DNA of 64,000 bases from a virus (lineage: Duplodnaviria > Caudoviricetes). Made by a program: the position numbers and the translations under genes. Of the stretch, positions 4,598-64,000 are shown piece by piece. The notes under the pieces are model-generated. The model made no database searches and was not told the origin of the DNA. It saw only the letters and a program-made list of their open reading frames with translations. The DNA lies in the IMG/VR virus record IMGVR_UViG_3300025018_000148, positions 7,094-71,093 of that record; one strand, written 5' to 3'. The stretch's first letter is position 1. Every line of letters begins with the position of its first letter.

Positions 4598-5905
4598 ATG
4601 GAACTGACCATACACCCACCTATCGACAAACTGGACGAGTATGTCCTGCAACAGCTAGAGGAGTCTGATCTCTCCGAGGAACAGAGAGCCTTGGCTCGGG
4701 AGATCATCACCACCCGCGACAACTTCCTCGTCACCGGGAATGCGGGGGTGGGTAAGAGCCACCTCCTCAATTGGCTTCGCCGGTTCATCAACCTCTCGGT
4801 GACTGCGTCTACCGGGATCGCTGCGATCCAGATCAAGGGGAGCACGATTCATGCGTTCGCCGGTCTCGGTATCGGCAAGCAGACCGCAGCGCAGATCGTG
4901 AACAGCCTTGCGGAGAAGGCGTTCAAATACAACGACCGCACCCTTCGTCGCCTTCAAGAATGTGAGCGTCTTGTCATCGACGAGGTCTCCATGCTGGATG
5001 CCGACATGCTCGATCTGCTGGAGCAGGTGCTCATGCTGGCTCGGGGCCGGGAAGAATCCTTCGGAGGCGTCCAGATGATCTTCATCGGGGACTTCCTGCA
5101 ACTGCCCCCTGTCACGAAGAAGGGACCCCCGAAGTTCGCGTTCACGGCGGAGTCGTGGCAGAATGCCGGGGTCAACGTCCGCCTGCTCACCAAGGTTTTT
5201 CGGCAACAGGACGAACACTTTTCCGCGATCCTCAACAAGATTCGTTTCGGAGAGACGGACGACGAGGTGTTCCAGTTCTTGAAGGCGCGGCACAAGGCAG
5301 TGGACACCGACCCGGCGCATCCTCCTTGCATCCTTCACACCCACAATGCCGGGTGTGAGGAGAAGAATTTGACCGAACTCGCCCGCCTGCCGGGGGAGGA
5401 AGTCATCCTCGAAGCGACCGAGTCGAGCAAGCATCCGAACTTCGCCAGTCAGATTGACAAAGAATGTTTGGCTCCTCAAAAGCTGCACCTCAAACTCGGA
5501 GCACGGGTCATGCTTCTCGCGAACTACAACCTGTCTCGGGGTCTTGCGAACGGGTCCCTCGGGGTGGTGCAGCAGATCTCTACGACGGAGGTCGAGGTCC
5601 TGTTCGACAACGGGGAGACCTGCAATGTCATCGAGTCCGATTACGAACTCATCCGTGGGGACGAAGTCGTCGCCACCCGGAAGCAGTTTCCTCTGCGCCT
5701 TGCGTGGGCGATCACGATCCACAAGAGTCAGGGGATGACCATCCCCAAGGTCGAGGCGCACCTCGCCGGGTGCTTCGCCAAGGGACAGTCCTACGTGGCG
5801 CTCTCGCGGGCCAAGACTGCGGAGGGTCTGTTCCTTCGGGGTGGCAGCGCCAACATCGAGGCGCACCCCAAAGCGGTTAAATTCTACCAAGAGCACTGCC
5901 GATGA
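4598..5905 (+). CDS. Pif1/RecD-like SF1B DNA helicase
   Basis: GNAGVGKS Walker A, ASTGIAA, IDEVSM, GDFLQLPPV, VFRQ, QFPLRLAWAITIHKSQG, YVALSR. Confidence 0.92.
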   Translation: MELTIHPPIDKLDEYVLQQLEESDLSEEQRALAREIITTRDNFLVTGNAGVGKSHLLNWLRRFINLSVTASTGIAAIQIKGSTIHAFAGLGIGKQTAAQIVNSLAEKAFKYNDRTLRRLQECERLVIDEVSMLDADMLDLLEQVLMLARGREESFGGVQMIFIGDFLQLPPVTKKGPPKFAFTAESWQNAGVNVRLLTKVFRQQDEHFSAILNKIRFGETDDEVFQFLKARHKAVDTDPAHPPCILHTHNAGCEEKNLTELARLPGEEVILEATESSKHPNFASQIDKECLAPQKLHLKLGARVMLLANYNLSRGLANGSLGVVQQISTTEVEVLFDNGETCNVIESDYELIRGDEVVATRKQFPLRLAWAITIHKSQGMTIPKVEAHLAGCFAKGQSYVALSRAKTAEGLFLRGGSANIEAHPKAVKFYQEHCR

Positions 5906-8528: not shown

Positions 8529-11500
8529 TCAGAAGTTGTCGTCCTCGGAGAGTTGCTGCACCGGGGGGACCAGTTGCAGGGCTTCCCGGAACAATGCGAT
8601 CCGGTCTTGATTGAGTTCTCGTCCGTTCTGGGTGGCAATGGTGTAAGTCTCCTTGGTCGGCATGTAGCGCCGGTATTGGTTGGAGAGGATGTCGGCAATC
8701 GCGTCATCTCCGAGTTTGCTCGATTGAAGTTCCCGGACAACGTCCCCCTTGGTCATGGTCCCCAGACGAATCGCGGCAACAGCCTTCCGACGAATCCTCA
8801 AGTATGCGTCCTTCATCTTATCGTTCGCCCGCACATACGAGGAAATGATCTCATCGTTGCTCTGGGTCCCCGGCGATTTGAAGACACGAGTGAACTCGGA
8901 AGCCGCCTGCCGCTGATCGTATTTGAATGCTCTCGCACCCCAAGAAAGATTGGACTCGGAGTTGGTCGAGGACTTTTTGATACCGAAGGCTGCGGACACG
9001 AACTCGTTGGCGAAGTTGTAGCTCCGACCGGCTTGGGACACTTCCTCGTTCCACCCCTTCATGATGCGACGGATCGAAGCGAGGGACCCCGGTTCGAGGG
9101 CGCTCTCGTAGATGTGTTGAAGGGAGAGTTTGGCTTTGCGAAGAAGCGGGTCGGTTGTGTCATAGACATTGCCCCCCGATTTTTCCACGCCCCGAGCGAT
9201 GTCAATCAAAGCCCCGAAGAAGATCTGCTCCTTGGCGACCGGGTCGATCAACTCGGAGAGGGTTTCCGTAATGGTCTCAGGGACTCCCGAGTCGGGGTCT
9301 TTCATGCCCCGGATGAAGGCACGAACCGGGCGAGCCCAAACATCGTAGGGGTTCATATAGGAGAGGTTGAAGTAATCAATGTCGCCATTGGCTTCCCTCC
9401 CCATCATGACGAAAGTGGAGTTGGTCTCCCAGTAGGGAAGTTGCTGGCGGAGATCTTCTTCGTCTTCCTCGTCCCAACCCGACTGGGCTCGGGCGAGAGC
9501 CACGATGCCGTAGAGTCCTGCCGTAGCGAGAGCGAAGCCGGTGAGCCGCGAAACCCCGGCAGCGACCAGGGCACCATTGTTGGTCTTCAGACCTTCAGCG
9601 ACGTGCGACAGACCCGTGCGGAGGATTCCCGCAGAGGTCCGGTAAACTTCGGCGGGGAAGGTGATGTATGGCGCAAGGAAAGGCATGAGTCGGATCGCTC
9701 TCACCAGTTCGGGAGCTTGCGAGTAAGTGGGCATGGTTGCCCGAACAATCTTGGCGGCTTCTTCCTCGATCTCGGAGCGAGTTGCGTTCGGGCGAAACTT
9801 CTCCACTCGCTTCAACTCGTTCTCGAAGTTCACGATTTTCCAGAAGTCGTCTTGCGACCCATAGAATCTTGTGGCGGATTCGAAACCTTTTCCGACGAGT
9901 CGAGAGAGCAGGGTCTTTTCCATCATCTTCTCGACGAACGTCACCGCTTTCTTCTTCGAGGAGAACCCTTGGGTCAGTTCAGAGATCAACGACTCGGTCA
10001 CCGATTCGCCGATCACGTTCAACTCGACCAAACGGATGATCCTTTCGCGGATAGCCTTGGGTCCCCGGTTGCTGAGATTCACGAAGTCATCGACGATGGC
10101 AGTCTTGATCTGCCACGGAGATCTCCAACCGAGGTTGCCGTTGGCGACGGTAGGGATGATGTTCCCCCAGAAGTTTCTCCACGCCGACTGCCACGACAAC
10201 ACGGTCTTGGTCGCCATCGAATACCCGGTCAAGCTCTGGAAGAACTTCAGCCACGCCGGACGGGACTGGTCAGACATGGTCTGAGCAAGAGCATCCCGGA
10301 GAGCCGGGGGTCCGTAGAGTCCGGACAGAGGAGTGAACCGGACATCCGGGGTATTGTTGAACCGACCCGTCATGCCGTTGTTCGTGAGGAGCGGCACCAA
10401 CCGGTTTCCTTGCCCATCATACTGGGAGTTCTCAGATACCCAGCCCTCCTTGACTCCGAGATCCCGGATCTCTTGGAAGAATTTCTGGGTGGCGAGGAAC
10501 TGGGTCACGGCTCCCAGAGACTTGGCGGCATTGATGATCGGATCGTCATACTCGCCCCACAGTTCGCGGATCTCCGGAGGGATCGTGCCCCGTTGCATGA
10601 GCGTGTTGACCTCCTTCGACACGGTCGCGCCTTGGAGGATGTTCTTGACGCCGAAGTCGGCGACAGAGAGATAGTCGTGGAACTTCTCCCGGACCATGTC
10701 GTCGGTCACTGCCGCTTGCGCCTGAGCGAGAGCCGCAGGTCCGGTGGCGGCACCCGAGGCAATGAGCTTTGCCTGCTCTTCCGCGATCAATTCCGCACGG
10801 ATGAAGTTGAGCGACTTGTTGCGGATCGTGGAGGCTTCGGCATCCTCCGAGAGCAGCCAGTCCACGTAGTTGTCCTGATCGAAGATCTTGTAGGAACGGT
10901 GCAACCAGAGCCCCTCATTCTCGTGGATGGTTGCCTTCAGATCTCCGGAGATCAGACCGTCGCGTTGGAGTTCTTTCGAGAGCAGGTCGATCTGTTGGCG
11001 CATGTCCCGAAGCACATCCACAAGATCTTTAGGGAGTTGGTTGTTCAGGATGTCATCCTGCCGCACCCGAGCTTGTTGGCGAATGCGGGCGCGAGCTTGC
11101 TTCTCGTAGTTCTCGGCCCGCAGCTTGTAGGCTTTGACATCGAGATCGAACTGCTCCTTCGCAGTCTCCCGGAGCTTGGCAGCTTGGTCGGCGAGGGAGC
11201 GATTGCCGGTAGTCGTCGCTCGGGTATCAAGGCTCTTCGCTCTCTGGCGAGCCTTGAGGTAATCCGACTTGGCTTGGGCGAGTCCGCTCTTCCGGATCTG
11301 CCGGGAGAAATCTTCGTCGGCGAGAGTCAGCCGGTTGTCGGTGTTACCGAGAGCCTCGTTCACGAGAGCCGTGGGCCATTTATCCTCGGGGCCGAAGTGC
11401 TTCTTCATCAAGCTCCGGACCTCCGCATGGAAGAACTCAGCACGCTTCATGGAGGCGTTCACCCGCCCCCGAGATTTCTCAAGCTGCTCGAACAGGCGAC

Positions 11501-14500
11501 GATCCCAGCGGAAGGCCGCAGAGAACCACCCCCCTTGATTGTATCCCTTGGTCTTCCCGGAGTTGTAGAGCGGGACACGTTGTTGTCTCCCCCACGGAGA
11601 GGCGTCCAGAGGGACCGACCTCGTTTGCCCGGTTTCGATCTCCCGCCCTAGCAGGGCATTGTATACGGTGGTGGGAGTGGGGGCTCCTTCGGAAGGGTTG
11701 AACGGGATCTCTCCCCGGTCAATGTGGAGCTTCCGATTCTCCATGACCCAGAGAGCCTTGGACACCCGATCCATGAAGGAGTGCAGAGCCGGATCGCGTC
11801 GAACGCGAACCCATTCCCTGAGCCTGCGGAGCACGGAGCGAAGGTAGAAGGTAGCCCGTCGAAACACGCCGGGATTCATGGACAGGAAGCCAAGGGTCTC
11901 CTCGGTCGTGTGCCCCGTCCTGAGCCTTTCATAGGTCATCCGGAGTGCTTCGTGCCCCAGACGATAAAGTCGCGTCTGACGCTGCGCAGGCGTCAAGCGT
12001 GGGTCGTTGCCGGTGAAGTCGATCAAAGCCTGTTGGTAGTCCCGGTCGCTGGGATACGCCGACCGATGAAGGTAGTTGCGGGCGACATCGAGTCGCTCGT
12101 CAAGTGACATCTGGTTGGCATGTGCGATCACCTCGGCGTCCCCAAGTTCTTGGGTGGCACCAAGGTGGACAGTCTCGTGAATGAAGATCTTCTCAATGGC
12201 GTGGGCGGCATCCTGCGGATACATGCCCTCCGTCATTTCCGAAAGCATGTCGGGGTTGAAGATGAGTTGCCTTCCCACGGTGCGGGCGGGAACGGGGACG
12301 GTGCGGTCGAGTCGGGTAGGCACGTTGGGATACCGAATGCGAGCCCGCTCAAGAAGCGCATTGGTCACTTCCGACCATTCCCCGCCACGAGTATACTGAG
12401 TCTGTTGGGGAGAATCACCGGTCGGGCTTGCATTGAGAGGCGTGTTCTTTCCGCGAGCAGAATGAAGATTGCCTCGGGTGCGAAGAAAAGTGTCCGTGGC
12501 TTCGATGAAGAGATACTCTTCTTTCGCAGTCATGGATCTCGTGGTGTCCCCGTCTTCTTGGGTGACGATCCATACTTCGGAATTCGTTCTCTCGTTGTAG
12601 TCGAGGAGCATGTCGATCCGGTCACTCACTGCTTGCTGGCGGGCGTCACGCATCTCTCCGGCGATCCGTTCAAGAGCATCTTTGTTCCTGATCGAGTCTT
12701 CGTCGAAGTTGTCGGTCACGGAGGAATACACCGATCCGTAGTCCCACTGCCCATCTTCGTAGGTAGCCCAAACAATGTCGCCGTCCGGAGTCTTGAAGAG
12801 ATTGGTTCCGGGGATGGAGGAAGTTTCGAAATCTCCGTCGTCGCGGACACGGACCAAGGTCAAGGGCTTCTTGTCCTCAAGGTATGCTTCCGACTCCTGC
12901 ACGGAATCCGTGTTGAACATCTCCTCCCTCACCTCTGCCACGGTGCGAGCCGTGGGATTGGAGGTAGGACTGGCGTCCAAGGGTGTGGTGTTTCGGTTCG
13001 CGATCTCCGGGAACACATCGACCGGGAGAAGGGTGGTGACCCCGGTCGTGTTGCCGGTGAATCGGAAAGTCTTCCCGGTCGAGGACACGTTGGAGACGAT
13101 CCCGAGTCTCTCGGCAGAGACGAGGGCAAGCATTCTTGCGGCATTCTCTTGAGGATCGGTTTCGTCAATGGGAAGGAAGGTGGCAGAGCGCACTTGGCGA
13201 CCCCGGCTATTCTTGGTGTCTTCCAGAAGTCGCAGCACCTTGTCGAAAGCCATGCGCTGCGTTCCGCTCATCATCGCTTTTTGACGATTACGCTCATCCA
13301 TGAGTTCCCCGAAGGTGACTCCGGTCAGGAAATCGTTGATCGATTTGAAGGGTTCAGGTGCAGTTTCCGGAGTCACCTCGGGAGCCGGGTTCGTGACAGA
13401 GTGGATCTCGATGGCATCGAGCCCCGAAGTGTAGAAGCTAACCCCGCTGGGTCCCTCTCCTCGCTGCAACTCCATCACTCGGGCCGGACGTTTGGCGAAG
13501 GTGACGGTGGCACGGAGGTTGCCATCCTTGAGCTTGTTGACCGCGACTCGCGCAGGGCGCTCTCCGTCCGGGTCCACGTAGCGGTCTTTCAACGCATCCC
13601 GAAGGTCGGAGGACACGTTCGTCACCGAGCCGGTCAAAGTGATCTCACTGCGATCCTCGGTCTGCCTGAAGCGGGCATTGGTGGCACCCGTAAGACCGAA
13701 AGAATATTCTTGAGCCTCGGGCTCTTGAACGGTATCGGGCTCGGGGGTCACCTCGGCTTCGGTCTCCGGGGCTTCGAAAGAAGCAAGCTCGTTGCGGTCG
13801 AGGAGGTCTTCGATGGTCTCCGGTTCGAAGTCCTCCTCGGAGTCAGCGGTAGCTTCTTCCTTCGTCAGGAACAGGACATCGATGGCAACAGCCTCTCCTT
13901 TTTCATTCACGATGAAATTTTGCGGAGTCACTTCCTCCATCAGGATAACCCCATCGGGGGTCTGCCACACGGTCCCGGAACGATTCCACTCGCTCCAACC
14001 CTGTTTCTCAAGCAGGTTCCTCAGTTCGAGGGGGCTCTCGGGGTGACGACCTTCGACGAACGGTTGAGAGGTAACCATTCGCCCATCTGGAAGAAGTCCC
14101 TCGACTCGAATGTCATCCCCCCACATGACATTCTGAGCTTCGAGACGAACCAAGTATTTGCGGAGGTTCCGCGACTTGCCGTAGTCGGGGCGACGGAGGA
14201 CTTTCCAGACCCGACCGGTCGAGTAATCGTTCCAGACTTCGTGCTCCTCGCCACTGGTGTAGTCGGGCTTGTCGGGGTCCATTCCAGCCGGAAGCCCCGG
14301 CAAGATCTTCAGCCCTCCTCGCTGGGCTTCTGAGGACCTCCGAAGCGGCGATTCGACTCCTCCGCCTGCTTCTTCATTTGTTCGGCGGAGACTCTCGACG
14401 ACTTCGGTCGGGCGGGGATTGTCACTCCCCGAATTACTCTTGAGCCAGTCTCGGAAGAAGCGGGGGGACGCTGGGGAGGTGCTGCCGTCCGCAAGGATTC

Positions 14501-17500
14501 GACTGCTCTCTTCGCCCAACTCTTGTTTGACTCCCCAAGATTCCTGCGAGGCAAGCTGCGGGAGAACACTGGGGTCAGGGAACTTTTGTTTGATGGATTC
14601 GACGGTGGTGTCGAATCCGAAGGGGAGGATGGGTTCTTTTGCATTGTTGGGGTTCCCTCTGTTGGATTTGGTGTTGACGGTGGTGAAGGTCGAGACATCG
14701 AAGAGCGCGTCTTGGTCAGCGGCAATCGAGATCTCGACCGCAGTGTCGAAGTTGATGATGGGGAAAGAAACGTCGAGCACAAAGCGGTTGGTGTCGATGT
14801 CGAACCACCCTCCGAGTTGCGCTCCCGGAATGTCGAACATATCTGCGTGCTGCTCTAAGTAAGCTTCGAGATCCGCATCCGAGAAGTCCTCGTTCACGAA
14901 CGCCCCCGTCGCTTTCGAGGGTGCGACGAGGTAGCCAATCGTGGCGAAACTTCCGTCCGGTCCCACGGTGAATCCGTCCTTCGATTCCCGGATGATCGCC
15001 GCGAGAGCGGAGGAATTGGATTTGAAGTCTTGGAATCTCGATGGGGCGGGCGGGTTGGTTTCAGAATCCGATACCACAGATTCTTGGGTTTGTCCAGCAG
15101 AACTTTCCGGGCTTCCGGTTCCCTCGGGGGCTACCGAAGGAAGTCTTGGACGGCTTTGCGTTGGGCTGCTTCCGGAAGGAGTTGCAGTCTCAGCCTTTCT
15201 TTGAGAGGCAGTTTGCGAAGAACGTCTTTCCACTCGGGAGAGGTCTGCGAGGACTTCGTCGAGGAGTTCTTCGACTCGTTGCCTGACGTTGGGGTTTTTG
15301 GTTTCATTGTAGATTTGTTCCCTCAGATTGTTTAGTTCATCGACGGCGGCACCAAGTTCCTCGGGAGTCGCTTCGACATCCTCGTCCGTGGTGAGCTTCA
15401 GTAGGTTGGGTTTGTTGATCAGGTGCCGGGTGAGAGACTGTTCGAAGATACGAGCGTCCCGCTCATACTGCTCGGCAGTGTATTCTTGCTGCTGGTTGAA
15501 ACGGTCAATTCCCTCGCGAACTTCCGCCCGCACTTCCGGGATGTCCTGCACCTCTTCGAAGCGGGGATACTCGATGGCGATCTCGGCTCCTTGTCGAGCC
15601 CGCAATTCGAGACCAACTGTGATGGCGTCGTCCCCTTCGATGGTGAACTCCTTGCCGGTCTCCCGGTCTTTCAGGGTCATCGACGGGGTGTCTCCGGTGA
15701 AGTCGGACGCCACGAAGCCGGACACGGTGGAACGCTTTCCTCCGGGGGTCGAGGCGAAACGGTTCGTCACGACTGCGCCATCTTTCCTCACGAATGCCGT
15801 TCTTGGCGTTCTCGTGCGGCTGGAGACCGGGGTAGCCAGTTTCCGCCCTCCCACCTCGGAGATGATCTGGGCGGCTTGTGCGTCGTCCTGCTCGGCGCTT
15901 TCGTCCAAGGACACCGAGAACTCGCTTTCGGAGAATTTCTGGTCCGGGTTTTTCCCGACGATGATGGGAGGAGCCGTGGGTCCCCGGTCGAGGAGGACCG
16001 TCCCGTCTTCTTCGATGACCAAGGTTCCCGTCTCCCCCTCAACACGCACCGGTCGTCCCTCAACTGCGCGGAAAGTGGGCTCGGCCTTGGTGGGGGTGAC
16101 CGGCGTGACTCCCCCGGCAGCGGGCACGTCTGTTGCGGTCCCGGAAGAAGGAGTCTCGACACCATCAACAATCTCGGTTGTTACTTCACGTTCACGAGCT
16201 TCTTCGATGACTTGCTCAAAGGACACCGGAGTGTTCTTGTATCGGTCGTTGATCGTGCTGACAACCTTGGTTCTCGCTTCCGTGGCGTCCATGCCCTCGG
16301 CGACCAGTTCAGCAACAGCCCGGTTGCCGGTGGCAACCGGGTCATACTCGGCACCCGGAGTGACCGTCGCGTTCAACAGGTTCGAGATCTCGTCCCGTCG
16401 CGCCTTCAACTTCGTCGTGTCCGTGTTCGGTTCGGCTTGATCGATCTGCTGTTCGATCTGGTCGAGTTCGTCGATCAAAGAAGTGACACGAGCTTCCGCT
16501 GCATCGAACACCCGGTTGCCTGCCACTTCGACTTCCCGGACGTTGGCTTTTTCAAGAGCGTCGGCAGTCTGAGTCAGACCGGCTTCCCGGAGTTCCTCGA
16601 CCTTGCGTCTCCGAGCATCCATTTCGGGGGACCGCAGAATCGCTTCGTTGGTGCGGGCAGCAAAAGACTCGAAGGCATTGGTGGGGAGTTCCACGGCTCC
16701 CCCGATGACGGCACCGGCAGTCCCGGCGAAGAGGGTGTTCTTCCACCAGTCCTCCCACGTCATGTCCGGGTTGCTGATAAGGGCATCGAGACCCCCGTTG
16801 ATCCCTTCGTCCAAGGCTTCCTCCAGACCTTCCGAGAGACCCCCTGCGGTGACGCGACCTGCAAAGGCCAAAGTATTTGCGGCACCGTCACTCAGTTCGG
16901 TCTTGAACTCTTTCGCGGCATACTTCTTGATTTGATCGGAAAGAGTCTTCCGAGCCGCAGGATTGTTGGCGACTGTGTTGAGACGAGCGATACCCTCGAT
17001 CCCTCGAAGACCGAAGACGCTCGTGATCGCAGCGGTGATGACTCCCGTCCGGGTTGCATCGAGCAGACCTCGTTGTCTCGCCTCGGCTTCGAGTTCTTCC
17101 CCGGCGAGACCCTGCGCGGCGAGTTCGCTCCGATGTCGTTCGTAGTTCTCGTAGAAAGCGGGACCGGCAGAAGAGGCTCCGGCAAGGGCGATTGCCATGG
17201 GTTTCTGGAGCAGGTCGAGATACTCACCCGTAGCCAGTTTCTTGGTCGGACTCTTTGCGAGGAGACTCTTGGCAAGTTGCGCAGATACCTGCTTCTTCAC
17301 CCCCTTCTTGGCGGCTTGAGCAGCCACCTGTTTTGCGACGGTCACGGTTCCCCCGGACAGCATGGTGGTGGCAATCTGAACGAAGGCATTGGCAGCGGGG
17401 TCGATCAACTTCCCGGCTCCCTCCAGCCCTCCGAGCAATTCGATTCGGGCACTGGCGCTTTGCTTGGCTGCGGAAGTCTCACCGAGAAACCCCATGGAGG

Positions 17501-18410
17501 TGTCCTCGACAATTCCCCCGAGGCGATCCGCCCCAACTTTCTTGAGCCCTTGCCCTGCGAGAATCCCCAGATACCCGGCACCCTCGGCACCGGAGAGGAG
17601 TCCACTTCCGAAAGCCTCGAATCCCTTCTCCCAATCTCCACGGTTGGATTTCTGAAAGGCTTCGATGACATCCCCATTGGTGGCTTCCGGATTGGTAGCC
17701 GCGTATTCTTTGGCAAAACCTCTGAAGGAAGTGAGACCTTTGAAACTTCCAATATGTTCTTTTGCGAGATCCTCCCGAACACGAGTGAACCCGGCAAGGA
17801 CACGGGCTTTCTCCTCGTTGCGGGCTTCGGAGTTGTTCACGACTTCAAGAAACTTCTCCCGATCATAGTATAGCTTCGGGTTCACGAACAACTTGCCTTG
17901 CACGACTCCGTAGTCACGCTTCCCTTGCAAGGCTTCGTCCGCTCGGCGGGCTTCCTCCACCACTCCGGTTCTCCCCGCCTGTTTGTTGGCTCCCTTGGTG
18001 GCGAGGTAGATCCGGTCATCGGCAGCTTGCAACTCAGCGGACAAGTAGTCCTCGTCGTCTCCGAGGGTTCGGAACTTCAGGTTGTTGATCTCACGCTTCT
18101 CCCGCTCCGCAGCACGGACTTCCTCCAATGCGGCGAAGATGGGAGCAAGGTTGTCCTCCTTCTCTTCCTCCGCCATCTGAGAGAGGATCTCTTCAGGAGC
18201 CATGGGCTCTATCCCGAGGGCTTGCTGTCGCGCCTGCTTGACTCGAATGTCATGCCGGAGCTTGTCCTCAAGATTCCACTCTCCCGTGGAGTTCTTTTGA
18301 TCGAGGACATAATTCTCCCACTTTCGAATAGCATCGAGCCGGGTGTCGGCGTCTCCTTCTTGAAAGCGGGGGTCGTTCAGGACTTCGTCCAGCGGGATGA
18401 GGTCAGCCAT
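8529..18410 (-). CDS. Giant (3293 aa) internal virion/DNA-ejection polyvalent protein
   Basis: Last large gene of the tail module; Gly/Ala hydrophobic N-terminal region; kinase-like domain (GEEHEV..RVWK..RLEAQN..VTSQPFVEG..TPQNF..IDV); HETVH zincin motif; helical C-terminal region typical of podovirus internal proteins. Confidence 0.8.
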   Translation of the reverse strand: MADLIPLDEVLNDPRFQEGDADTRLDAIRKWENYVLDQKNSTGEWNLEDKLRHDIRVKQARQQALGIEPMAPEEILSQMAEEEKEDNLAPIFAALEEVRAAEREKREINNLKFRTLGDDEDYLSAELQAADDRIYLATKGANKQAGRTGVVEEARRADEALQGKRDYGVVQGKLFVNPKLYYDREKFLEVVNNSEARNEEKARVLAGFTRVREDLAKEHIGSFKGLTSFRGFAKEYAATNPEATNGDVIEAFQKSNRGDWEKGFEAFGSGLLSGAEGAGYLGILAGQGLKKVGADRLGGIVEDTSMGFLGETSAAKQSASARIELLGGLEGAGKLIDPAANAFVQIATTMLSGGTVTVAKQVAAQAAKKGVKKQVSAQLAKSLLAKSPTKKLATGEYLDLLQKPMAIALAGASSAGPAFYENYERHRSELAAQGLAGEELEAEARQRGLLDATRTGVITAAITSVFGLRGIEGIARLNTVANNPAARKTLSDQIKKYAAKEFKTELSDGAANTLAFAGRVTAGGLSEGLEEALDEGINGGLDALISNPDMTWEDWWKNTLFAGTAGAVIGGAVELPTNAFESFAARTNEAILRSPEMDARRRKVEELREAGLTQTADALEKANVREVEVAGNRVFDAAEARVTSLIDELDQIEQQIDQAEPNTDTTKLKARRDEISNLLNATVTPGAEYDPVATGNRAVAELVAEGMDATEARTKVVSTINDRYKNTPVSFEQVIEEAREREVTTEIVDGVETPSSGTATDVPAAGGVTPVTPTKAEPTFRAVEGRPVRVEGETGTLVIEEDGTVLLDRGPTAPPIIVGKNPDQKFSESEFSVSLDESAEQDDAQAAQIISEVGGRKLATPVSSRTRTPRTAFVRKDGAVVTNRFASTPGGKRSTVSGFVASDFTGDTPSMTLKDRETGKEFTIEGDDAITVGLELRARQGAEIAIEYPRFEEVQDIPEVRAEVREGIDRFNQQQEYTAEQYERDARIFEQSLTRHLINKPNLLKLTTDEDVEATPEELGAAVDELNNLREQIYNETKNPNVRQRVEELLDEVLADLSRVERRSSQTASQRKAETATPSGSSPTQSRPRLPSVAPEGTGSPESSAGQTQESVVSDSETNPPAPSRFQDFKSNSSALAAIIRESKDGFTVGPDGSFATIGYLVAPSKATGAFVNEDFSDADLEAYLEQHADMFDIPGAQLGGWFDIDTNRFVLDVSFPIINFDTAVEISIAADQDALFDVSTFTTVNTKSNRGNPNNAKEPILPFGFDTTVESIKQKFPDPSVLPQLASQESWGVKQELGEESSRILADGSTSPASPRFFRDWLKSNSGSDNPRPTEVVESLRRTNEEAGGGVESPLRRSSEAQRGGLKILPGLPAGMDPDKPDYTSGEEHEVWNDYSTGRVWKVLRRPDYGKSRNLRKYLVRLEAQNVMWGDDIRVEGLLPDGRMVTSQPFVEGRHPESPLELRNLLEKQGWSEWNRSGTVWQTPDGVILMEEVTPQNFIVNEKGEAVAIDVLFLTKEEATADSEEDFEPETIEDLLDRNELASFEAPETEAEVTPEPDTVQEPEAQEYSFGLTGATNARFRQTEDRSEITLTGSVTNVSSDLRDALKDRYVDPDGERPARVAVNKLKDGNLRATVTFAKRPARVMELQRGEGPSGVSFYTSGLDAIEIHSVTNPAPEVTPETAPEPFKSINDFLTGVTFGELMDERNRQKAMMSGTQRMAFDKVLRLLEDTKNSRGRQVRSATFLPIDETDPQENAARMLALVSAERLGIVSNVSSTGKTFRFTGNTTGVTTLLPVDVFPEIANRNTTPLDASPTSNPTARTVAEVREEMFNTDSVQESEAYLEDKKPLTLVRVRDDGDFETSSIPGTNLFKTPDGDIVWATYEDGQWDYGSVYSSVTDNFDEDSIRNKDALERIAGEMRDARQQAVSDRIDMLLDYNERTNSEVWIVTQEDGDTTRSMTAKEEYLFIEATDTFLRTRGNLHSARGKNTPLNASPTGDSPQQTQYTRGGEWSEVTNALLERARIRYPNVPTRLDRTVPVPARTVGRQLIFNPDMLSEMTEGMYPQDAAHAIEKIFIHETVHLGATQELGDAEVIAHANQMSLDERLDVARNYLHRSAYPSDRDYQQALIDFTGNDPRLTPAQRQTRLYRLGHEALRMTYERLRTGHTTEETLGFLSMNPGVFRRATFYLRSVLRRLREWVRVRRDPALHSFMDRVSKALWVMENRKLHIDRGEIPFNPSEGAPTPTTVYNALLGREIETGQTRSVPLDASPWGRQQRVPLYNSGKTKGYNQGGWFSAAFRWDRRLFEQLEKSRGRVNASMKRAEFFHAEVRSLMKKHFGPEDKWPTALVNEALGNTDNRLTLADEDFSRQIRKSGLAQAKSDYLKARQRAKSLDTRATTTGNRSLADQAAKLRETAKEQFDLDVKAYKLRAENYEKQARARIRQQARVRQDDILNNQLPKDLVDVLRDMRQQIDLLSKELQRDGLISGDLKATIHENEGLWLHRSYKIFDQDNYVDWLLSEDAEASTIRNKSLNFIRAELIAEEQAKLIASGAATGPAALAQAQAAVTDDMVREKFHDYLSVADFGVKNILQGATVSKEVNTLMQRGTIPPEIRELWGEYDDPIINAAKSLGAVTQFLATQKFFQEIRDLGVKEGWVSENSQYDGQGNRLVPLLTNNGMTGRFNNTPDVRFTPLSGLYGPPALRDALAQTMSDQSRPAWLKFFQSLTGYSMATKTVLSWQSAWRNFWGNIIPTVANGNLGWRSPWQIKTAIVDDFVNLSNRGPKAIRERIIRLVELNVIGESVTESLISELTQGFSSKKKAVTFVEKMMEKTLLSRLVGKGFESATRFYGSQDDFWKIVNFENELKRVEKFRPNATRSEIEEEAAKIVRATMPTYSQAPELVRAIRLMPFLAPYITFPAEVYRTSAGILRTGLSHVAEGLKTNNGALVAAGVSRLTGFALATAGLYGIVALARAQSGWDEEDEEDLRQQLPYWETNSTFVMMGREANGDIDYFNLSYMNPYDVWARPVRAFIRGMKDPDSGVPETITETLSELIDPVAKEQIFFGALIDIARGVEKSGGNVYDTTDPLLRKAKLSLQHIYESALEPGSLASIRRIMKGWNEEVSQAGRSYNFANEFVSAAFGIKKSSTNSESNLSWGARAFKYDQRQAASEFTRVFKSPGTQSNDEIISSYVRANDKMKDAYLRIRRKAVAAIRLGTMTKGDVVRELQSSKLGDDAIADILSNQYRRYMPTKETYTIATQNGRELNQDRIALFREALQLVPPVQQLSEDDNF

Positions 18411-34667: not shown

Positions 34668-34696
34668 GGTATATTAGGGTATCTTGGGGTTGAGAT

Positions 34697-45847: not shown

Positions 45848-45875
45848 AGTATTTTAGGTATTGGTTTGTTTTTTG

Positions 45876-48539
45876 TTATTTGTTTTGTTGTCTGTCAATC
45901 TGAAGGAATTGGATCGTGTGATCCCCTCCAGAGAGAATATCATTCTCGATCAACTCTTCGAGAAAAGCTTCTAAATTGTCTTCTTTGCTGCCATGCGGAG
46001 CAGCCTCACGAATCTTGTCTTCGAGAGCCGTGATATGCACGGACCCCACACACTCGATGAAATCCGGCAAGGTGACTCCATACCCCTCCGCCACATTGAA
46101 CGCGGCAACGGCATTGGAGACAACCCGCTTCGTCTTCTTGGTCATCTTCTTGAATCCGGGGATGTCCAGCCCTTCGTCGAAGGCAAGCTCGTTCGCCTTC
46201 GCCTTGACGGATTCGATCCATGCTTCCAGCACCGGCACCATCATCCGGGCTTTGCCGATCTCCTCGGGGGTGTCCATGAGGGAGGCGTCGAGATACTCCG
46301 GGAGGACGAGCCCGTCCTCCATACGATCCCGATAGATGAGGAGAACCTTGTCGTTGAGAGCCTGACAAGTCTCCTTGCGACCGCACCACTCACAGACGTG
46401 GGGAGTCGGATTGAATTCCTTCCCGGCAAGCTTCTTTGCCTTGGAGATGACGAGGTTGATGCGGAGATGGAGATCGTGCATCGTCCCCGAAGATTCCTGC
46501 CCCTCCTCCTCCCACCACTCGGGAATCTCGACATTCTCGTCCCGCAGGAATGCGGCCATGGTGATTGTGTTCTGCCGGGGGACGAGGAAATAGAAATACA
46601 CGATCTCCACTTTGGGGAACCTCTGGAAGACCCCCAAAGTATACGCCCACGCTTGACTGTTGATCTCCGCATCATCGACCGGCGTCCAACCGCACTTGTA
46701 GTCGTGGGCGACCGCAACATTGCCGTAGACGGCAAGACGATCCATGGTGCCGAAGGTCTGGTGATTCGAGAGATCGATCTGAAGGCGGATCTCGTTGAAC
46801 TTCTCACCCTCCGAGACTCCGAACATCTCCTCGTTGGAGTAGACCTTGTTCATCATCTGCCACGCGAGCATCTGCTCGCCCTCGTCCTGAAGGGACTCGG
46901 GGTCCTCCCGTTCGAGAGCATGGTGAATCCGGGTCCCCGCGACAGTCATCTCGTGCAACTCCGCATCCTCCTTCTCCTTCCGGTTCTCGTAGGAAGGGCA
47001 CGTCTCAAAATACTTGAGGGAGGAAGGTCCGTATTCGGCGTGCGCCGGTTGCGCGTCCAGCAATTCGAACTCAGGTTCGAGAACCTCTTCCTGCTTTTTG
47101 ACGGGAGCTTTCTTGGAGGGGCTCTTTTTCGCAGGGGTCTTTTTGGTCGGCGCGGCTTGCTTGGCGGGGGCTTTCTTCGGGGGCATAGCGTTCTCGTTCG
47201 GTTGGTGCAGAGTCTCCAGATTCTTTAGCTTGCGATCCAAGGCTTCTCGAACTTGCTCTTCGACGGTGCCTGCCGCAAACAGAATGCGTTGAAGAGTATC
47301 AGTCTTTGCTCCCGCTCTGTCAACTCTTCCTAGCACTTGTTTGATAGTCTTCTCATTCCAAGCCGGAGAAATGAGTGCCAACCGGGGAGCATTGCCGATT
47401 TTATCGTGCAAGGAGATCGCGACTCCCCCCGCCTCGACGTTCAAGATTATGATGTTGTCCCGTCCGGACTGGAAAGCTTCGATGGCGGATTGCCGCTCTT
47501 CGGGGGACTGCTGGACCTTGGTGTCCGGGTCGGTCCCCCACACAATCGGACAATTGCCTCCGAGCCGGGAGTTGAGAGCCTTGACACTGGCGTTGAAATT
47601 CAAGAATATGGGGACGTGCCACCCTTCGGCAATCGCCTCGGTCACCATCTCGGCCATGAGTGGAATCTTGAGCAACTCGACTCTCTGCCGCGCACGGAGC
47701 ATGGCGATCAGAATCTCCGCCTCCGGAGACACCTTGTCCTCCGCTTCTTTGGCTTCGAGTTCCTCGATCTCCGCTTCCATCTCCGCATAGATCCTCTCAA
47801 TCTCCCCGTCGTCACCGAAGTCCACCGGGGTTGTGATGATATGACCGTTGGAGAAGAACTCCCGGAGTTCGTGCCGGTGGACCTTGTAGCCATGACCGGG
47901 GTAAAGCTCCCGGTTCAATTGCTGGAGAATCTCCTCCGCCTTCTCTTCGTTCTGGGTGAACTGCCATCTCTTCCACCGGTCCTTCCGGCACCCGTGGCGC
48001 TTCGCCCATGCGACATAGTCGTAATACCGGTGGAGCCCCAGCACATACCCCACGGTCTTCAATTCAGTGGGGTCCTTGGCGACCGTCGCAGACACGAGCA
48101 TGTTCATGATGTCCGTGTTATCCCCCGCATACTTGAGCATTCTCGAACTGAGCGACTTGGCTTCCTTGCACTTGTGGACCTCGTCCCAGATGATGAGTCC
48201 GATCTGCTCGTTCCAGACGAAATCCCTTTGCTCCGGGTCCCCCTTCTTGGGAGGATCTCCCACCCAAGCTCCGCAGATGGTGTTGCCCCGGCGAATCAAA
48301 TCATAGTTGATGATCCCAAGATACTCTACCCCCTGCTCATTGAACGTGGCTTCCCAGTCGGGGATGACCGACAGGGGGCAGATCACGAGAGGACGCCTGC
48401 CCACATTGCGGGAGATCTCAACACTCATGAGCGTCTTCCCCGTCCCCGTGTCGGAGGCATTCAACGCAGACCCTTTCTCCAGAAGGAGGTGGGTGAGGTG
48501 ATCGATGGCGACCTGCTGCGGTGGATAGGGAGTGAGCAT
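45876..48539 (-). CDS. SNF2-like SF2 helicase fused to a PD-(D/E)XK (DUF2800/Cas4-like) exonuclease
   Basis: DTGTGKT, WDEVH, SAT and QVLGRVDR, then GPSSL..CP, GTRIH, GTMD..DYKCG, CEWC..C. Confidence 0.85.
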   Translation of the reverse strand: MLTPYPPQQVAIDHLTHLLLEKGSALNASDTGTGKTLMSVEISRNVGRRPLVICPLSVIPDWEATFNEQGVEYLGIINYDLIRRGNTICGAWVGDPPKKGDPEQRDFVWNEQIGLIIWDEVHKCKEAKSLSSRMLKYAGDNTDIMNMLVSATVAKDPTELKTVGYVLGLHRYYDYVAWAKRHGCRKDRWKRWQFTQNEEKAEEILQQLNRELYPGHGYKVHRHELREFFSNGHIITTPVDFGDDGEIERIYAEMEAEIEELEAKEAEDKVSPEAEILIAMLRARQRVELLKIPLMAEMVTEAIAEGWHVPIFLNFNASVKALNSRLGGNCPIVWGTDPDTKVQQSPEERQSAIEAFQSGRDNIIILNVEAGGVAISLHDKIGNAPRLALISPAWNEKTIKQVLGRVDRAGAKTDTLQRILFAAGTVEEQVREALDRKLKNLETLHQPNENAMPPKKAPAKQAAPTKKTPAKKSPSKKAPVKKQEEVLEPEFELLDAQPAHAEYGPSSLKYFETCPSYENRKEKEDAELHEMTVAGTRIHHALEREDPESLQDEGEQMLAWQMMNKVYSNEEMFGVSEGEKFNEIRLQIDLSNHQTFGTMDRLAVYGNVAVAHDYKCGWTPVDDAEINSQAWAYTLGVFQRFPKVEIVYFYFLVPRQNTITMAAFLRDENVEIPEWWEEEGQESSGTMHDLHLRINLVISKAKKLAGKEFNPTPHVCEWCGRKETCQALNDKVLLIYRDRMEDGLVLPEYLDASLMDTPEEIGKARMMVPVLEAWIESVKAKANELAFDEGLDIPGFKKMTKKTKRVVSNAVAAFNVAEGYGVTLPDFIECVGSVHITALEDKIREAAPHGSKEDNLEAFLEELIENDILSGGDHTIQFLQIDRQQNK

Positions 48540-50294: not shown

Positions 50295-50320
50295 ACTTCA
50301 GATACTTGGGGTTAAACTCG

Positions 50321-52856: not shown

Positions 52857-52869
52857 GGGATACTTGGGG

Positions 52870-53406
52870 TTATCTGAGCCGCCCGGTTACTGCGGCGTGA
52901 AAAATCAACAGAGCGTCGGCATTCGCAAGCGTGACCTGCTCGGAGGGGAATCGCTCCTGAGCCTTCTCCTTGAGGTGGTTCTTCCACGCACGCTCGCCGA
53001 TCAAAGACTTCTGCCCGGTGACGATCATCGCGGCAGTCATCCACTTGAGCGGAGCCACTTCGCGAACCTCGAAGCCCTCGAAAACGAAAGCGCACTCCAG
53101 ATGCCCCGTGACACGACCGAAAGAGAACATCGACTTGGCGGAAACCGCACCCTCCTCTTCTTCCTCCTCCCCCTTGCGCTTGGTGGAGGTCTTCATGCCC
53201 GCCATGTATCCCGTGTTGCGCTCCAAGAATGCGAGCCTCTTCGGATAGGCATAGGGAGGGAACTCCTCGTGAACGTGTAAGAAAAGCCGTTTCAATCCCT
53301 CAAGCTTCTCGGGATACTTGGTCCAATGATACCTTTCCTTCGAGGTCCCCCACACGAGAGCCCCCGCCTTGCCGGGATCAGCAGCAATGACCAACCGCTC
53401 AGGCAT
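52870..53406 (-). CDS. ruvC: RuvC-like Holliday junction resolvase
   Basis: IAADPGKAG, FLE, SMFSFG, VAPLKW, ADALLI. Confidence 0.8.
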   Translation of the reverse strand: MPERLVIAADPGKAGALVWGTSKERYHWTKYPEKLEGLKRLFLHVHEEFPPYAYPKRLAFLERNTGYMAGMKTSTKRKGEEEEEEGAVSAKSMFSFGRVTGHLECAFVFEGFEVREVAPLKWMTAAMIVTGQKSLIGERAWKNHLKEKAQERFPSEQVTLANADALLIFHAAVTGRLR

Positions 53407-57758: not shown

Positions 57759-57976
57759 AGTTGGGTGTGCGGTTGTTTGTCGATGTGGAATTGATCGTCG
57801 TAGAGCATTCGGATTCCGTTCTGAGCCAGCAGGTCCACAACATCCTTGAGCTTCAGGTTGGCGAGGGTTTCGATTGATGGTCCACCTCTCGCTTGGGTCA
57901 GGGCTCCCTCCAGTCTGCACCAGAAGTCACCTCGGCATTCTTGAGCGTGTAGCCCGTCAGGTCCGTCGTCAGTCAT
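57755..57976 (-). CDS. Hypothetical protein
   Basis: 73-aa ORF overlapping the next start. Confidence 0.5.
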   Translation of the reverse strand: MTDDGPDGLHAQECRGDFWCRLEGALTQARGGPSIETLANLKLKDVVDLLAQNGIRMLYDDQFHIDKQPHTQL

Positions 57977-58269
57977 ACCCGAATTCTAGCAGCAATATTC
58001 TTGGGGTCAAATTATTTTCTACACCGAGAAAAACTGGAAAACCGGAATTTTATACAACCTACCGATATATACTCTACTGTCGCCACGGTCCCCTGCCACC
58101 CCCACCCGTGCCGTGTCCTGCCCTCTGTCGTCGTCCTCCTGCCCTGCCCTCGGCCCCCTCATTCTGGTAGTGTTAGGGGGTCTGCTGCCCTGCCCTTGCC
58201 ACGGTCGAGCCCTTGTCCCTTGTCGTCAGGGTCCGCGAGTCCTCGACTCAGGGACAAAATCGATGTAAC

Positions 58270-59130
58270 CTATTCACCCTCAATTACTTGAGTCACGACA
58301 CTGGTCTCCCTCCTGACTGAGTCCTGACTAACCTGCGATAAGACGCCGATTTGAATGATTGACCTGCGACCCTCTCCGCCTGTCTTTTGACGTGTAGCAC
58401 GCCGATAGAGTTCATCGACTGTTTTGAGGTCCCCGACTTTGTGAATCGGGATCAACCCGCCCGATTCGTAGAACTTTGTTAGTGACCGTTCTGCTAGGGT
58501 TGCGACCTTCTCGTCGAATCCGTCCTCGGCTTCCGGGGAGCGGGCAGATGTGGTTTTGTTAGAGCGACTTACGGGCGGGGCTTTTGGCGGGATGTTAGGG
58601 GAGTTCTTGCTGGTATCGGTATCCGACTTTGTGATTCTGTTAGTCGGTTTCCCCGGCTTCCGGTCTCCCTCGCTGAAGTCCAACGTTTTACGAATGTTAG
58701 GGCGACCCTTTGTCTCCGGCTTCCGGACCTCCTCTCGCACCGGTTCAGGTTCGAGCAAAACCCTGATTTGAACGGACTCGGCGCGGAGGTGATCGAGTGC
58801 CAGAGAGTCGGTTTTTGTGCATCCGTCAGGGCGGTAGATCGCACCTCCGTTTCGCTGAGCTTCTGCAACAATGTTAGTCTTCCGTTTTGTGATTCTGTCA
58901 GGCGTTGCCCAGTCCTCCCTCGTCATCCGGGTTCGCACGAGATCCGGGGACAGTCCAAACTCACGGCAGCATTCCGGGAGGGATCGTTTCCCTTGTCTCC
59001 CTGCTTCGAGTTCTTGTCGTAGTGTCAGGATAGCCTTCTCCTGAAGTTCCTTCGCAGCTTGCGAAAGCTTCCGGCGCGTCTTGATGGGGCGTCCCGTTTC
59101 CTTGTCTCGTTTGATGGGCATCTCTAACAT
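58270..59130 (-). CDS. HTH protein, terminase small subunit candidate
   Basis: SLPECCREFGLSPDLVRTRMTREDW HTH-like segment; disordered middle; helical C-terminus DLKTVDELYRRAT...IIQIGVL; next to the strand switch. Confidence 0.4.
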   Translation of the reverse strand: MLEMPIKRDKETGRPIKTRRKLSQAAKELQEKAILTLRQELEAGRQGKRSLPECCREFGLSPDLVRTRMTREDWATPDRITKRKTNIVAEAQRNGGAIYRPDGCTKTDSLALDHLRAESVQIRVLLEPEPVREEVRKPETKGRPNIRKTLDFSEGDRKPGKPTNRITKSDTDTSKNSPNIPPKAPPVSRSNKTTSARSPEAEDGFDEKVATLAERSLTKFYESGGLIPIHKVGDLKTVDELYRRATRQKTGGEGRRSIIQIGVLSQVSQDSVRRETSVVTQVIEGE

Positions 59131-59244
59131 TACAACAATCCTTGCCCTCTGTCCACCCTGTCGAGGGACCTCCGGAAGTGCCGTAAAAGGGACACGGCAA
59201 AAAAGGACTTGATTCCCCCAGAATATTGGTTTAAAGGTTCCCTA

Positions 59245-59665
59245 CGCTGAAACGCGACCCGCCCCGACAGGCGGAGGGGTTCTGGTCCCAAAGGAGACCG
59301 GAAGCACCTGAGACCGAAAAGCCCGTGAGGGTGCGAGGGTCTCGAAAGCACCCCAGTTCTTTGACATCCTGACCCGCTCCACCAGGGACGCAAGGTGGAG
59401 ACCCTAACAGTGACCGAAACGGACGAGTGATCGCCGGTAGTAGAGATCCGAAAGCAGGCAGTCCCAGAACCCAGCTTTATGGGGAGGGAGACATCCGCGC
59501 CAAGTCAGGCGGGGAGGTTCGAGTAAGTGGCTTAGCTGTTAGGGTTCAGGTAATATTGTTTGTTACAGTGTTAGAGCAACCCTTGTCGTCCGTCCTTCGG
59601 GGCGGGCGGCAGGCGGGTGCAATCGATCCCGGAATTCAATCCGAGCCGGGATCGATCCCACCTGA
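59245..59665 (+). ncRNA. Candidate large structured non-coding RNA
   Basis: No credible ORF; perfect long-range helices 59277-85/59464-72, 59401-10/59536-45 and 59258-67/59597-606; local hairpins with UUCG/GAAA loops. Confidence 0.55.
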
Positions 59666-59692
59666 TACCAAAATCTAGCCTAACAAAACACT

Positions 59693-59791
59693 ATGAATCT
59701 TGAATATGTAATTGAAGACGCCTTCGAATTCCAGCCGGAGTCCTTCGACTCTGAAGTCCTCGAACTCCTCGCCGCCATCTCTCAGTCTTGA
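59693..59791 (+). CDS. 32-aa acidic peptide
   Basis: Preceded by the early leader motif (ctagcctaacaaaacactATG); MNLEYVIEDAFEFQPESFDSEVLELLAAISQS. Confidence 0.5.
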   Translation: MNLEYVIEDAFEFQPESFDSEVLELLAAISQS

Positions 59792-59895
59792 GATCCGGTG
59801 ATTCCCACCCTGCCCTGACAGTCCTTGTGGTTCTGTCAGGGCAGCAGGGAGTCTCTCGACTCCGATTAAATCTAACCTAACAAAACAATACCAGC

Positions 59896-60141
59896 ATGAG
59901 CAAAAAGCACTTCATCGCCCTCGCCGACGCACTTCGCACCTCTCGTCCGGAATGCCACTGGGACCCTAACAAAATCCTCCAGTGGCGTCTGGACGTTCAC
60001 CGAATCGCGGACTTCTGCCAGTCGCAGAACCCGCGATTCGACCGGGGCCTTTGGTTCGACTACATCGACGGGACCCGTGGTCCCTCCGGTGGCAGAATCG
60101 CCAATCCTCCCCTTGGCGTCCTCAACGTGATCGACGCCTGA
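59896..60141 (+). CDS. Early hypothetical protein (K.F..IA...NPRFDR family)
   Basis: Leader motif; MSKKHFIALADAL...QNPRFDRGLW. Confidence 0.75.
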   Translation: MSKKHFIALADALRTSRPECHWDPNKILQWRLDVHRIADFCQSQNPRFDRGLWFDYIDGTRGPSGGRIANPPLGVLNVIDA

Positions 60142-60238
60142 TGGCAGTTCCCACCCTGCCCTGGCAGAACCACAAAGTTTTGTCAGGGCAGCAGGGAGTT
60201 TCCCTCCATTTCAATCTAACCTACACTAACAAAACAAT

Positions 60239-60885
60239 ATGATTACCGAGCAAGATGCAATCGAGCAATACGTGGCAACCCGTATCTCTCAGCCGTTCAA
60301 TTGGACGAAGCTGACAATCGTCGAGTTGGTCCGGGCTGACCGGATCACCCTGACAAGTGCCTCAAAATCTCTGACCGACGAGGTCCGGGAATTCGAGTCT
60401 ATCGAGGACTGGCAAGACGCTTTCGGCGAGGACTTGTTCCCTCCCGCTCTACCTCTACGATCACTCCGGGATCACGATTTCCTGCCGCCCGTTCCACTGC
60501 CCGTTCCACTGCCCGTGGGACTCCGGTCAGGTCGGCTATGCTGTCCTGACAAAGCAAGAAATCGACTCCGAGTTCGGCGGTGACCGGGAGCGGGCGGAAG
60601 CCTGTCTCCGGTCCACCGTGAGCACCTACGACGACTACCTCACGGGGCGCGTCTACGGTTACACGATCTCAATCTCCGACGAGAACGAGGACGCCGACGA
60701 GGACCTCGACGAGATCGACGACTCCTGCTGGGGTTACTACCTCGGCGAAAAAGAGTCGGCACGGGACGACGACAGCTACCTCGCTCAAGAGGCGAGAAGC
60801 GTCATCGATCACCACCTCGCCACGGTCTCCCCGGACGGCAACCAAACACGACTCCGAACGGGACCTCGCCGGGTTCCAAAGCTGA
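60239..60885 (+). pseudogene. Doubly frameshifted early gene (PLYLYDHSG...WDSGQVG...VYGY...DSCWG family)
   Basis: Family motifs are continuous only after a frame change near 60440; the natural stop at 60883-85 is reached only after a second shift. Confidence 0.7.
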
Positions 60886-63732: not shown

Positions 63733-63837
63733 TTCCTCCTGTCAGGGCATCCCGGTAAAGTTACAACCAACTTTGCCGGGGTGTCTTGCAGGGAGCAATC
63801 GCTCCGAACAAAACTAACCTAACAAAACAATACTACT

Positions 63838-64000
63838 ATGAACAAAGACAAAATCGACGTGACATCCCTGCTCTCGCAGGAGGTTCGGGACCGGATCACC
63901 GTTGCGGTGGAGGAGCGACTGACCCAGTTGTTCCCCATCTTCGAGGTGATCCCTCAAGCCTTCGACGTGGTCCCCAAGATCACGGTGTCGCTCAACATCA
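63838..64000 (+). CDS. Early hypothetical protein, 3'-partial
   Basis: Leader motif + ATG; open to the window end. Confidence 0.65.
   Translation, partial: MNKDKIDVTSLLSQEVRDRITVAVEERLTQLFPIFEVIPQAFDVVPKITVSLNI

Follow-up and report, generated by a model that had tools for sequence, protein, structure and literature searches.

A candidate structured leader RNA with an anti-leader tract at the head of the early gene array of a temperate-looking 71-kb phage

In phages T7 and T3 the early region is headed by host promoters and a leader RNA, with the RNase III site R0.3 placed before the first early gene. Control of a kind related to that considered here, antisense and encoded in a leader, is known from the satellite phage P4, whose immunity RNA is leader-derived. 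The c4 RNA of phages P1 and P7, made from the front of an operon, blocks a gene further down in it by pairing around that gene's ribosome-binding site (PMC12197685), and phages N4 and LUZ7 have hairpin promoters for a virion RNA polymerase, found at their early genes, together with a giant virion protein (PMC4496689, PMC9163698). How does the gene-free head of the early gene array in the present phage compare with these systems? The region in question is a gap of 562 nt between a 286-aa gene on the minus strand (58270-59130) and, in divergent orientation, the first early leader and ORF on the plus strand (59693). We consider it best explained as the structured, untranslated 5′ leader, some 450 nt long, of a rightward early transcript that would act on start sites through an antisense tract, a reading whose chance of being right we put a little below even. 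As such it would be a new structured early leader, and it is a plausible, unproven RNA control element.

The stretch of DNA analysed, here called the window, comprises 64,000 nt, bases 7094-71093 of an IMG/VR virus record that has 71,093 bp and is rated complete by CheckV; positions given without further label are those of the window. The record is labelled linear in IMG/VR despite a terminal repeat: its ends (genome 1-192 and 70902-71093, the latter being window 63809-64000) match each other at 190 of 192 nt, indicating that the map is circular or terminally redundant and that its break lies inside the plus-strand early array. Owing to this end repeat the array of early cassettes is seen to run on across the record ends and to hold about 16 distinct leader copies. 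It begins at 59693, crosses the record ends on the plus strand and stops at about genome position 4837, some 9 kb in all; the roughly 16 small genes in it all have a G-poor leader of almost constant sequence and strong hairpins in front of them. Between 59130 and about 7447 nearly all of the remaining genes are read from the minus strand, and include those for a family A DNA polymerase, a helicase-nuclease, a primase-like protein, an integrase and a virion protein of 3293 aa; the phage, of 71 kb, is temperate-looking. The 3293-aa protein (8529-18410, minus strand) has as sole PHROG match 'virion structural protein', confined to its C-terminal fifth. Its central 1400 aa are without a PHROG match, no usable Atlas match was obtained, and among solved structures in the PDB, N4-type virion polymerases included, none matched the protein by sequence. 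A long G-free, A/C-rich leader was also observed at 45848-45895 (minus strand) ahead of a 283-aa gene; the few bases with which it reaches the ATG are also those of the early leaders, and start sites of this style thus occur outside the array too.

The initial annotation had described 59245-59665 as a candidate structured RNA of about 420 nt that contains no ORF and in which no intron, RNase P, tmRNA or hammerhead core was recognized. The statement on the ORF holds, as the stop-to-stop frames of the region translate into junk rich in arginine, serine and glycine, show neither the leader motif nor a start signal of the kind used by this phage, and have no credible homologues. For the longest plus-strand frame no homologue was found at E ≤ 0.01, and for the longest minus-strand frame an exhaustive HMMER search of 1.8 billion representatives gave nothing beyond weak matches, of low complexity and spread over several stretches, to long proteins that are unrelated. 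Likewise, the failure to recognize group I or II introns, RNase P, tmRNA or hammerhead cores was borne out by a comparison with Rfam, in which no catalogued family was matched. Rfam 15 gave no match at gathering thresholds anywhere in the window, GOLLD, ROOL, HEARO, riboswitches and C4 included, and with E relaxed up to 10 the only matches in 58900-60000 were two of microRNA noise, both on a downstream joint hairpin. ARAGORN found neither tRNA nor tmRNA. For the neighbouring 286-aa protein four relatives (at 65-71% and 98% identity) were found, only in ENA and Logan assemblies. A search of GenBank phages gave no match, profile scans of viral, metagenome and genome contigs and single-protein scans found no relative, and six DNA-pattern scans returned chance matches only, as checked by blastn and tblastx. 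Two IMG/VR records (G001 and G002) share a leader 14-mer and a replication gene with the phage but were set aside as unrelated in this region, G001 having 40% GC. The features of the gap are collected in Table 1.

Table 1. Coordinates of the features in and around the gap ahead of the early array (window positions)
Feature	Position	Strand	Remarks
Candidate sigma70-type promoter of the 286-aa gene	59127-59155	-	-35 at 59155-59150, -10 at 59132-59127
P_H, candidate early promoter	59209-59237	+	diverged paralogue of P_L and P_R by alignment
Structured core, purine-rich	59245-59581	+	hairpins h1-h4 and a ~145-nt domain closed by helix d; z -3.2
Hairpin h1	59259-59274	+	overlapped by the 5′ arm of helix a (59258-59267)
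Hairpin h2	59281-59302	+	7 + 2 bp, 3-nt loop; pair probability 0.98-0.99 in all contexts; competes with helix b
Hairpin h3	59304-59349	+	stem 59310-15/59338-43, internal loop, apical stem with GNRA cap; probability 0.90-0.95
Hairpin h4	59377-59400	+	7 bp, 59377-83/59394-400; probability 0.98-1.00
Helix d domain	59401-59545	+	closed by a perfect 10-bp helix, 59401-10 with 59536-45
Anti-leader tract	59535-59577	+	AU-rich, between helix d and the UUCG hairpin
UUCG hairpin	59582-59613	+ only	14 bp, 4 G-U pairs; probability 0.92-0.96 in long contexts
Long hairpin	59614-59664	+	6 + 11 + 3 bp on a near-perfect DNA palindrome; probability 0.99-1.00
G-poor open leader	59665-59692	+	first copy of the motif preceding early genes; unpaired in the fold; reaches the ATG of the 32-aa ORF
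First small early ORF, 32 aa	59693-59791	+	

The helices on which the original proposal was built are real as sequence features. All three long-range perfect helices, 59258-67 with 59597-606 (helix a, 10 bp), 59277-85 with 59464-72 (helix b, 9 bp) and helix d (59401-10 with 59536-45, 10 bp), are present; helices b and d cross on paper; and the three local stems, those of h3 and h4 and 59622-32/59646-56, are there as well. Moreover, the suspicion that such self-complementarity is unusual proved correct, since both the count of inverted repeats and the RNAfold z-score lie beyond shuffled sequences and the genome background. Four perfect inverted repeats of at least 9 nt occur in the 421 nt, compared with 0.33 expected from 2000 dinucleotide shuffles (P = 0.0005), and three of at least 10 nt compared with 0.07 expected, which not one of the 2000 shuffles attained. 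The folding energy, too, falls outside shuffled expectation, with a z of -6.2 for the plus strand and -4.7 for the minus strand, and 44 other 421-nt window-strands of the same genome have a mean z of about -0.8, a standard deviation of about 1.2 and a minimum of -3.0. Much of this overall score is supplied by the two 3′ hairpins, the strongest local value being -7.0 at 59550-59699; the 337-nt core alone has a z of -0.9 on the minus strand and on the plus strand (Table 1) stands at the edge of the genome background. On which strand would such a fold act? The plus-strand fold includes 17 G-U pairs, four of them in the 59582-59613 hairpin, which turn into A-C mismatches if the minus strand is folded. 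Special tetraloops of the GNRA or UUCG type cap three of the 12 plus-strand hairpins and none on the minus strand (shuffle mean 0.32, P = 0.012). The core has a composition of G.32, A.25, C.26 and U.17, and with 57.6% purine differs from the flanking genes. Taken together, the strand-biased z, the G-U pairs, the tetraloops and the purine skew point to a folded signal that is specific to the plus strand, and hence favour an RNA of the plus strand over a feature of the DNA or a transcript of the minus strand. Tandem repeats or iterons were not found in the region. One large imperfect palindrome was considered and rejected, as the repeat arms are not in mirrored order. Apart from a 25-mer and the final leader the region shares no sequence with the rest of the genome, and an origin by piecing together copies of the inter-gene joints was rejected on account of this uniqueness.

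Two elements had been missed in the first reading, an antisense match at 59553-59577 and a promoter-like module at 59209-59237. The former, which is the 25-mer just mentioned and the sole segment of the core that recurs in the genome, is antisense to L002:1501-1525 over its whole length, forming 24 Watson-Crick pairs and one G-U pair without interruption (in-genome match E about 7e-6); the single difference is a transition and would still pair as G-U. The target belongs to a 116-aa ORF (L002:1524-1874), the first gene beyond the early array; it is the start region of that gene, and the match reaches into the ATG at L002:1524-1526. The tract is separated from its target, on the same strand, by some 9.1 kb in which all genes share this orientation. 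As the target start site is a variant of the common early leader, the tract would also pair with the early leaders: 59543-59575 is the best pairing partner of every one of them, the antisense match there being imperfect. Read on the minus strand, the 25-mer opens no ORF; the ATG is lost and a stop follows after two codons. By itself the tract is weakly folded (-9.8 kcal/mol, z -1.0) and the least structured piece of the region; its unpaired probability of 0.35-0.38 means that it is not especially accessible as predicted, and some folds pair it with the first leader and its AUG (probability 0.3-0.5). RNAduplex energies did not set the tract apart from the GC-rich background.

A further anti-leader was observed at L002:2430-2492 (genome about 5766-5828, plus strand), where a hairpin is formed from the last codons and the stop of a 160-aa gene. 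Its loop and stem contain an exact 11-nt anti-leader, then follow a 12-bp GC hairpin and a short U run (z -5.9), and the anti-leader is thereby placed directly ahead of the strong terminator with which the next plus-strand unit ends. This element looks like a 3′-end-derived small RNA aimed at the common early leader and, being a second anti-leader, suggests that the phage may use the device elsewhere.

In a standard scan no sigma70-type promoter was found in the gap. Strong sigma70-like promoters were found on either side of the early region: P_L (minus strand, near 58010; 57975-58062) and P_R (plus strand, genome 5253; L002:1885-1960) are paralogous, face outward, and have in common an upstream 12-mer that occurs twice in each. 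Lying only 6-9 nt from ATGs, they imply leaderless or near-leaderless messages. The promoter-like module in the gap, P_H, has the first four bases of the -35 intact, is identical to them over a 9-nt block of the spacer, resembles them in an A-rich pair upstream, and is tied for second-best non-self match to the P_L core genome-wide, about 5 standard deviations above the mean; its -10 is poor. Judged from its sequence, this candidate would set the 5′ end of the RNA at about 59244-59247, that is, at the left edge of the folded region. On the opposite strand, a relaxed scan gave the candidate promoter of the 286-aa gene (8 of 12 matches, A2 and T6 kept), at a distance of 5 nt from the second ATG of that ORF (59121), which would imply a leaderless start. 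The ORF probably starts at this second ATG, and its homologue P0003 starts at the second Met of the 286-aa ORF. Since the 286-aa gene has its own close promoter candidate, transcription through the core is not required for it.

Three further observations concern start signals. At 59119-59130 a -10-like hexamer of the minus strand overlaps the first ATG, and the same 8 bases read -10-like on the plus strand; because these bases are shared, two divergent promoters may compete. Between the divergent candidates, at 59172-59204, lie a 5-bp hairpin followed by an A run and a pair of A-rich motifs similar to those upstream of P_L and P_R, possibly operator or UP-like elements. Furthermore, a 13-nt motif lies on the minus strand at 52859-52871, 50301-50313 and 34679-34691, in each case 2-11 nt upstream of a gene's ATG; the motif has 5 matches compared with 0.3 expected. 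The spacers of P_L and P_H contain a related block, and the motif may serve this phage as a promoter or start-site signal of its own.

The main rival to a leader RNA is a control region that works at the level of DNA, with back-to-back promoters and protein sites, in which the palindrome 59616-59662 and the 25-mer would be operator or promoter elements, the twin 25-mers pointing outward, and repeats of such site motifs would have produced the long-range complementarity incidentally. The 25-mer and its twin at the far end of the array could then be a single DNA element employed in both orientations. The symmetric layout speaks for this, as the 25-mers flank the array in inverted orientation with the paralogous, outward-facing P_L and P_R beyond them, and so does the absence of G-U pairs from the three long-range helices and the palindrome, all of which are perfect Watson-Crick repeats. 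Short motifs, moreover, recur in both orientations, an immunity switch is to be expected in a phage with an integrase, and the 59614-59664 hairpin can form on either strand and may be a protein-binding palindrome instead. The strand bias weighs on the other side: the fold is clearly better on the plus strand, and G-U pairs, tetraloops and purine skew are irrelevant to DNA sites. In addition, no DNA-binding domain was detected in the 286-aa protein (albeit with a poor AF2 model, pLDDT 52), and the twin 25-mer ends inside an ATG in the manner of a translation leader. We therefore regard control at the DNA level as unlikely, while giving it serious weight.

Could the region be neutral or decaying spacer, left over from rearrangement at the edge of a recombination-prone array, with the hairpins and the reversed leader as relics? 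The array is full of repeats capable of recombination, the reversed copy of the leader has no ATG and opens no ORF, and the z-score of the core is only borderline against the genome background, all of which a relic would explain. A relic does not predict so many perfect repeats (P 0.0005), nor tetraloops confined to one strand, nor the purine skew. Furthermore, the region is not built from joint fragments, only the 25-mer and the final leader recurring, and an identity of 24/25 between two non-coding copies argues for constraint or a very recent origin. A relic thus seems to us rather improbable; if the region were only a folded spacer, it would be an ordinary early control region.

The idea with which the analysis began, a single autonomous non-coding RNA of about 420 nt with a tertiary fold made of the b/d pseudoknot and the closing helix a, possibly of a new ribozyme-like or scaffold class, has to be judged on the anatomy of the fold, and here a unitary object is not supported: the 421 nt are a composite. 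The last ~110 nt follow the two-hairpins-plus-leader plan of the array. In 59582-59692 two adjacent strong hairpins are succeeded by about 30 unpaired, G-poor nucleotides leading into the ATG, a plan common to every joint of the array, so that this segment is 'joint zero' in plan rather than a special RNA, although its sequence is unique. Upstream of this 3′ part the core folds in silico into five or six stable local hairpins. In every tested context five hairpins of the whole region have a probability above 0.9, namely 59281-302, 59304-349, 59377-400, 59582-613 and 59614-664, and h3 carries its special tetraloop at 59324-29. Helix d belongs to the minimum-energy fold and has a probability of 0.96-0.99 in RNAs ending near 59700, falling to 0.06-0.35 with added 3′ sequence; its 5′ arm resembles an early-gene leader and its 3′ arm is anti-leader.

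The pseudoknot and the switch that had been proposed for this RNA are conjectures resting on predicted folds, and they fared differently. The pseudoknot found no support, helix b having a probability of 0.00 and a cost of +10.3 kcal/mol when forced in nested folding, because the competing local hairpin h2 (59281-302) is very stable. The switch would set helix a against the UUCG hairpin, whose 3′ arm doubles as helix a partner. Only in the isolated RNA are the two states nearly isoenergetic (ddG 1.1 kcal/mol); with the downstream sequence included the balance is gone. Correspondingly, helix a, which is an alternative to two local hairpins, has a probability of 0.56-0.67 in the isolated leader and of at most 0.02 with a longer 3′ context. 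A classical antiterminator, also envisaged at the outset, or an attenuator is not indicated, as nothing terminator-like comes after the hairpins: there is no plus-strand terminator-like site in 58900-60300 and no U tract after 59613 or 59664. A switch of the attenuator or riboswitch type was therefore rejected, the alternative pairing being present but no intrinsic terminator preceding the first gene.

For an autonomous RNA, then, one can cite 1) the three perfect long-range helices, two of them crossing; 2) the GNRA and UUCG loops; 3) a composition like that of large structured RNAs, and 4) the lack of an Rfam match. Against these stand the penalty of 10 kcal/mol for helix b, which faces a hairpin of probability 0.99, the instability of helices a and d towards context, and a 3′ quarter that follows the array plan with no terminator to bound a separate transcript. 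We hold such an RNA to be improbable.

Least likely, and in our view very improbable, is an RNA of the minus strand that begins with the leader-like 25-mer (59577 to 59553) and either provides the 286-aa gene with a long 5′ UTR or is antisense to the early leader, since for all that the 25-mer is on this strand 24/25 identical to a genuine gene leader and the arrangement mirrors the other end of the array, the core is unstructured on the minus strand (z -0.9), no ORF follows the 25-mer with its stop after two codons, the 286-aa gene has its own promoter candidate, and a sigma70-like fit to the 25-mer gives at most 7 of 12 matches. An invertible segment was considered as well and rejected: the flanking pair 59122-41/59553-77 shares only an exact 8-mer, with several gaps beyond it, and the integrase gene is 4.3 kb away.

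How could a leader RNA of the preferred kind work? Transcription, we infer, starts near 59245 from P_H, which would be a weak copy of the phage's own host-type promoter. The RNA would then form the purine-rich core of stable local hairpins, some of them GNRA-capped, followed by the helix d domain, the weakly folded AU-rich tract, the two strong hairpins, and the open leader running into the first small ORF. Control at the RNA level is its most likely task: this leader, or a fragment freed from it by cutting within the two hairpins, would pair with the start sites, and the pairing would either mask these sites or yield double-stranded RNA for cleavage, while the folded body would serve to stabilize the antisense RNA.

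A more ambitious version, which we think unlikely and offer as speculation, makes the leader the hub of a timing circuit composed of RNA only, in which the tract is set against the roughly 16 early leaders and the post-array start, and a second anti-leader provides the shut-off. The 43-nt tract would pair with the G-poor leader of all of the roughly 16 cassettes, and perfectly with the post-array start; a leader-mimic, the 5′ arm of helix d, would cover part of the tract and so mask it; and the anti-leader hairpin at L002:2430-2492, made as the 3′ end of the next transcription unit, would later silence the whole early class. Such a circuit, if true, would give phages a novel means of turning off an entire class of early genes via one common leader. 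For the leader RNA itself the consequences would also be of interest. If real, it would be an uncatalogued structured leader RNA that uses the common translation leader as an address, one short antisense tract could control a set of swappable, probably anti-defence, early genes together with the gene that follows them, and the 25-nt match would offer a testable handle in a phage lineage with almost no annotated genes.

Set beside the described systems, the locus shares one or another trait with each. With N4 and LUZ7 it has in common hairpins at the head of the early genes and a giant (3293-aa) virion protein. N4-type promoters, however, are stems of 5-7 bp with 3-nt loops whose sequence is common to the copies, and no such repeated hairpin occurs here; promoters of this type are not supported, as neither a small-hairpin consensus in the gap nor a match to a virion polymerase by sequence was found. 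As with HK022 put and lambda nut, the locus may be a folded leader RNA of a phage early operon that affects expression downstream. The put and nut elements exert their effect on terminators and have a length of no more than about 70 nt, whereas here there is no terminator-like site and no sequence similarity to them was detected. The resemblance to T7 and T3 lies in several hundred gene-free bases at the head of an early operon transcribed, in the present phage presumably, by the polymerase of the host, in a terminal hairpin ahead of the first gene and in similar hairpins between the early genes. The T7 leader, in contrast, consists largely of successive promoters, and neither long-range helices nor an antisense tract are known from it, and cutting by RNase III would in the present phage be a matter of analogy.

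In its presumed logic the locus is analogous to c4 of P1 and P7. In contrast to c4 itself, it matches the C4 model (RF01695) neither in sequence nor in structure and is not a member of that family, and where c4 has 77 nt with two short loop sequences, a single 25-nt tract is embedded here in a leader of about 450 nt. As in P1 and P7, a candidate RNA, here at the head of the early array, is complementary to the start region of a gene further down on the same strand, and if the pairing is real, control of the P1 c4 type would be extended from one target to a whole gene class.
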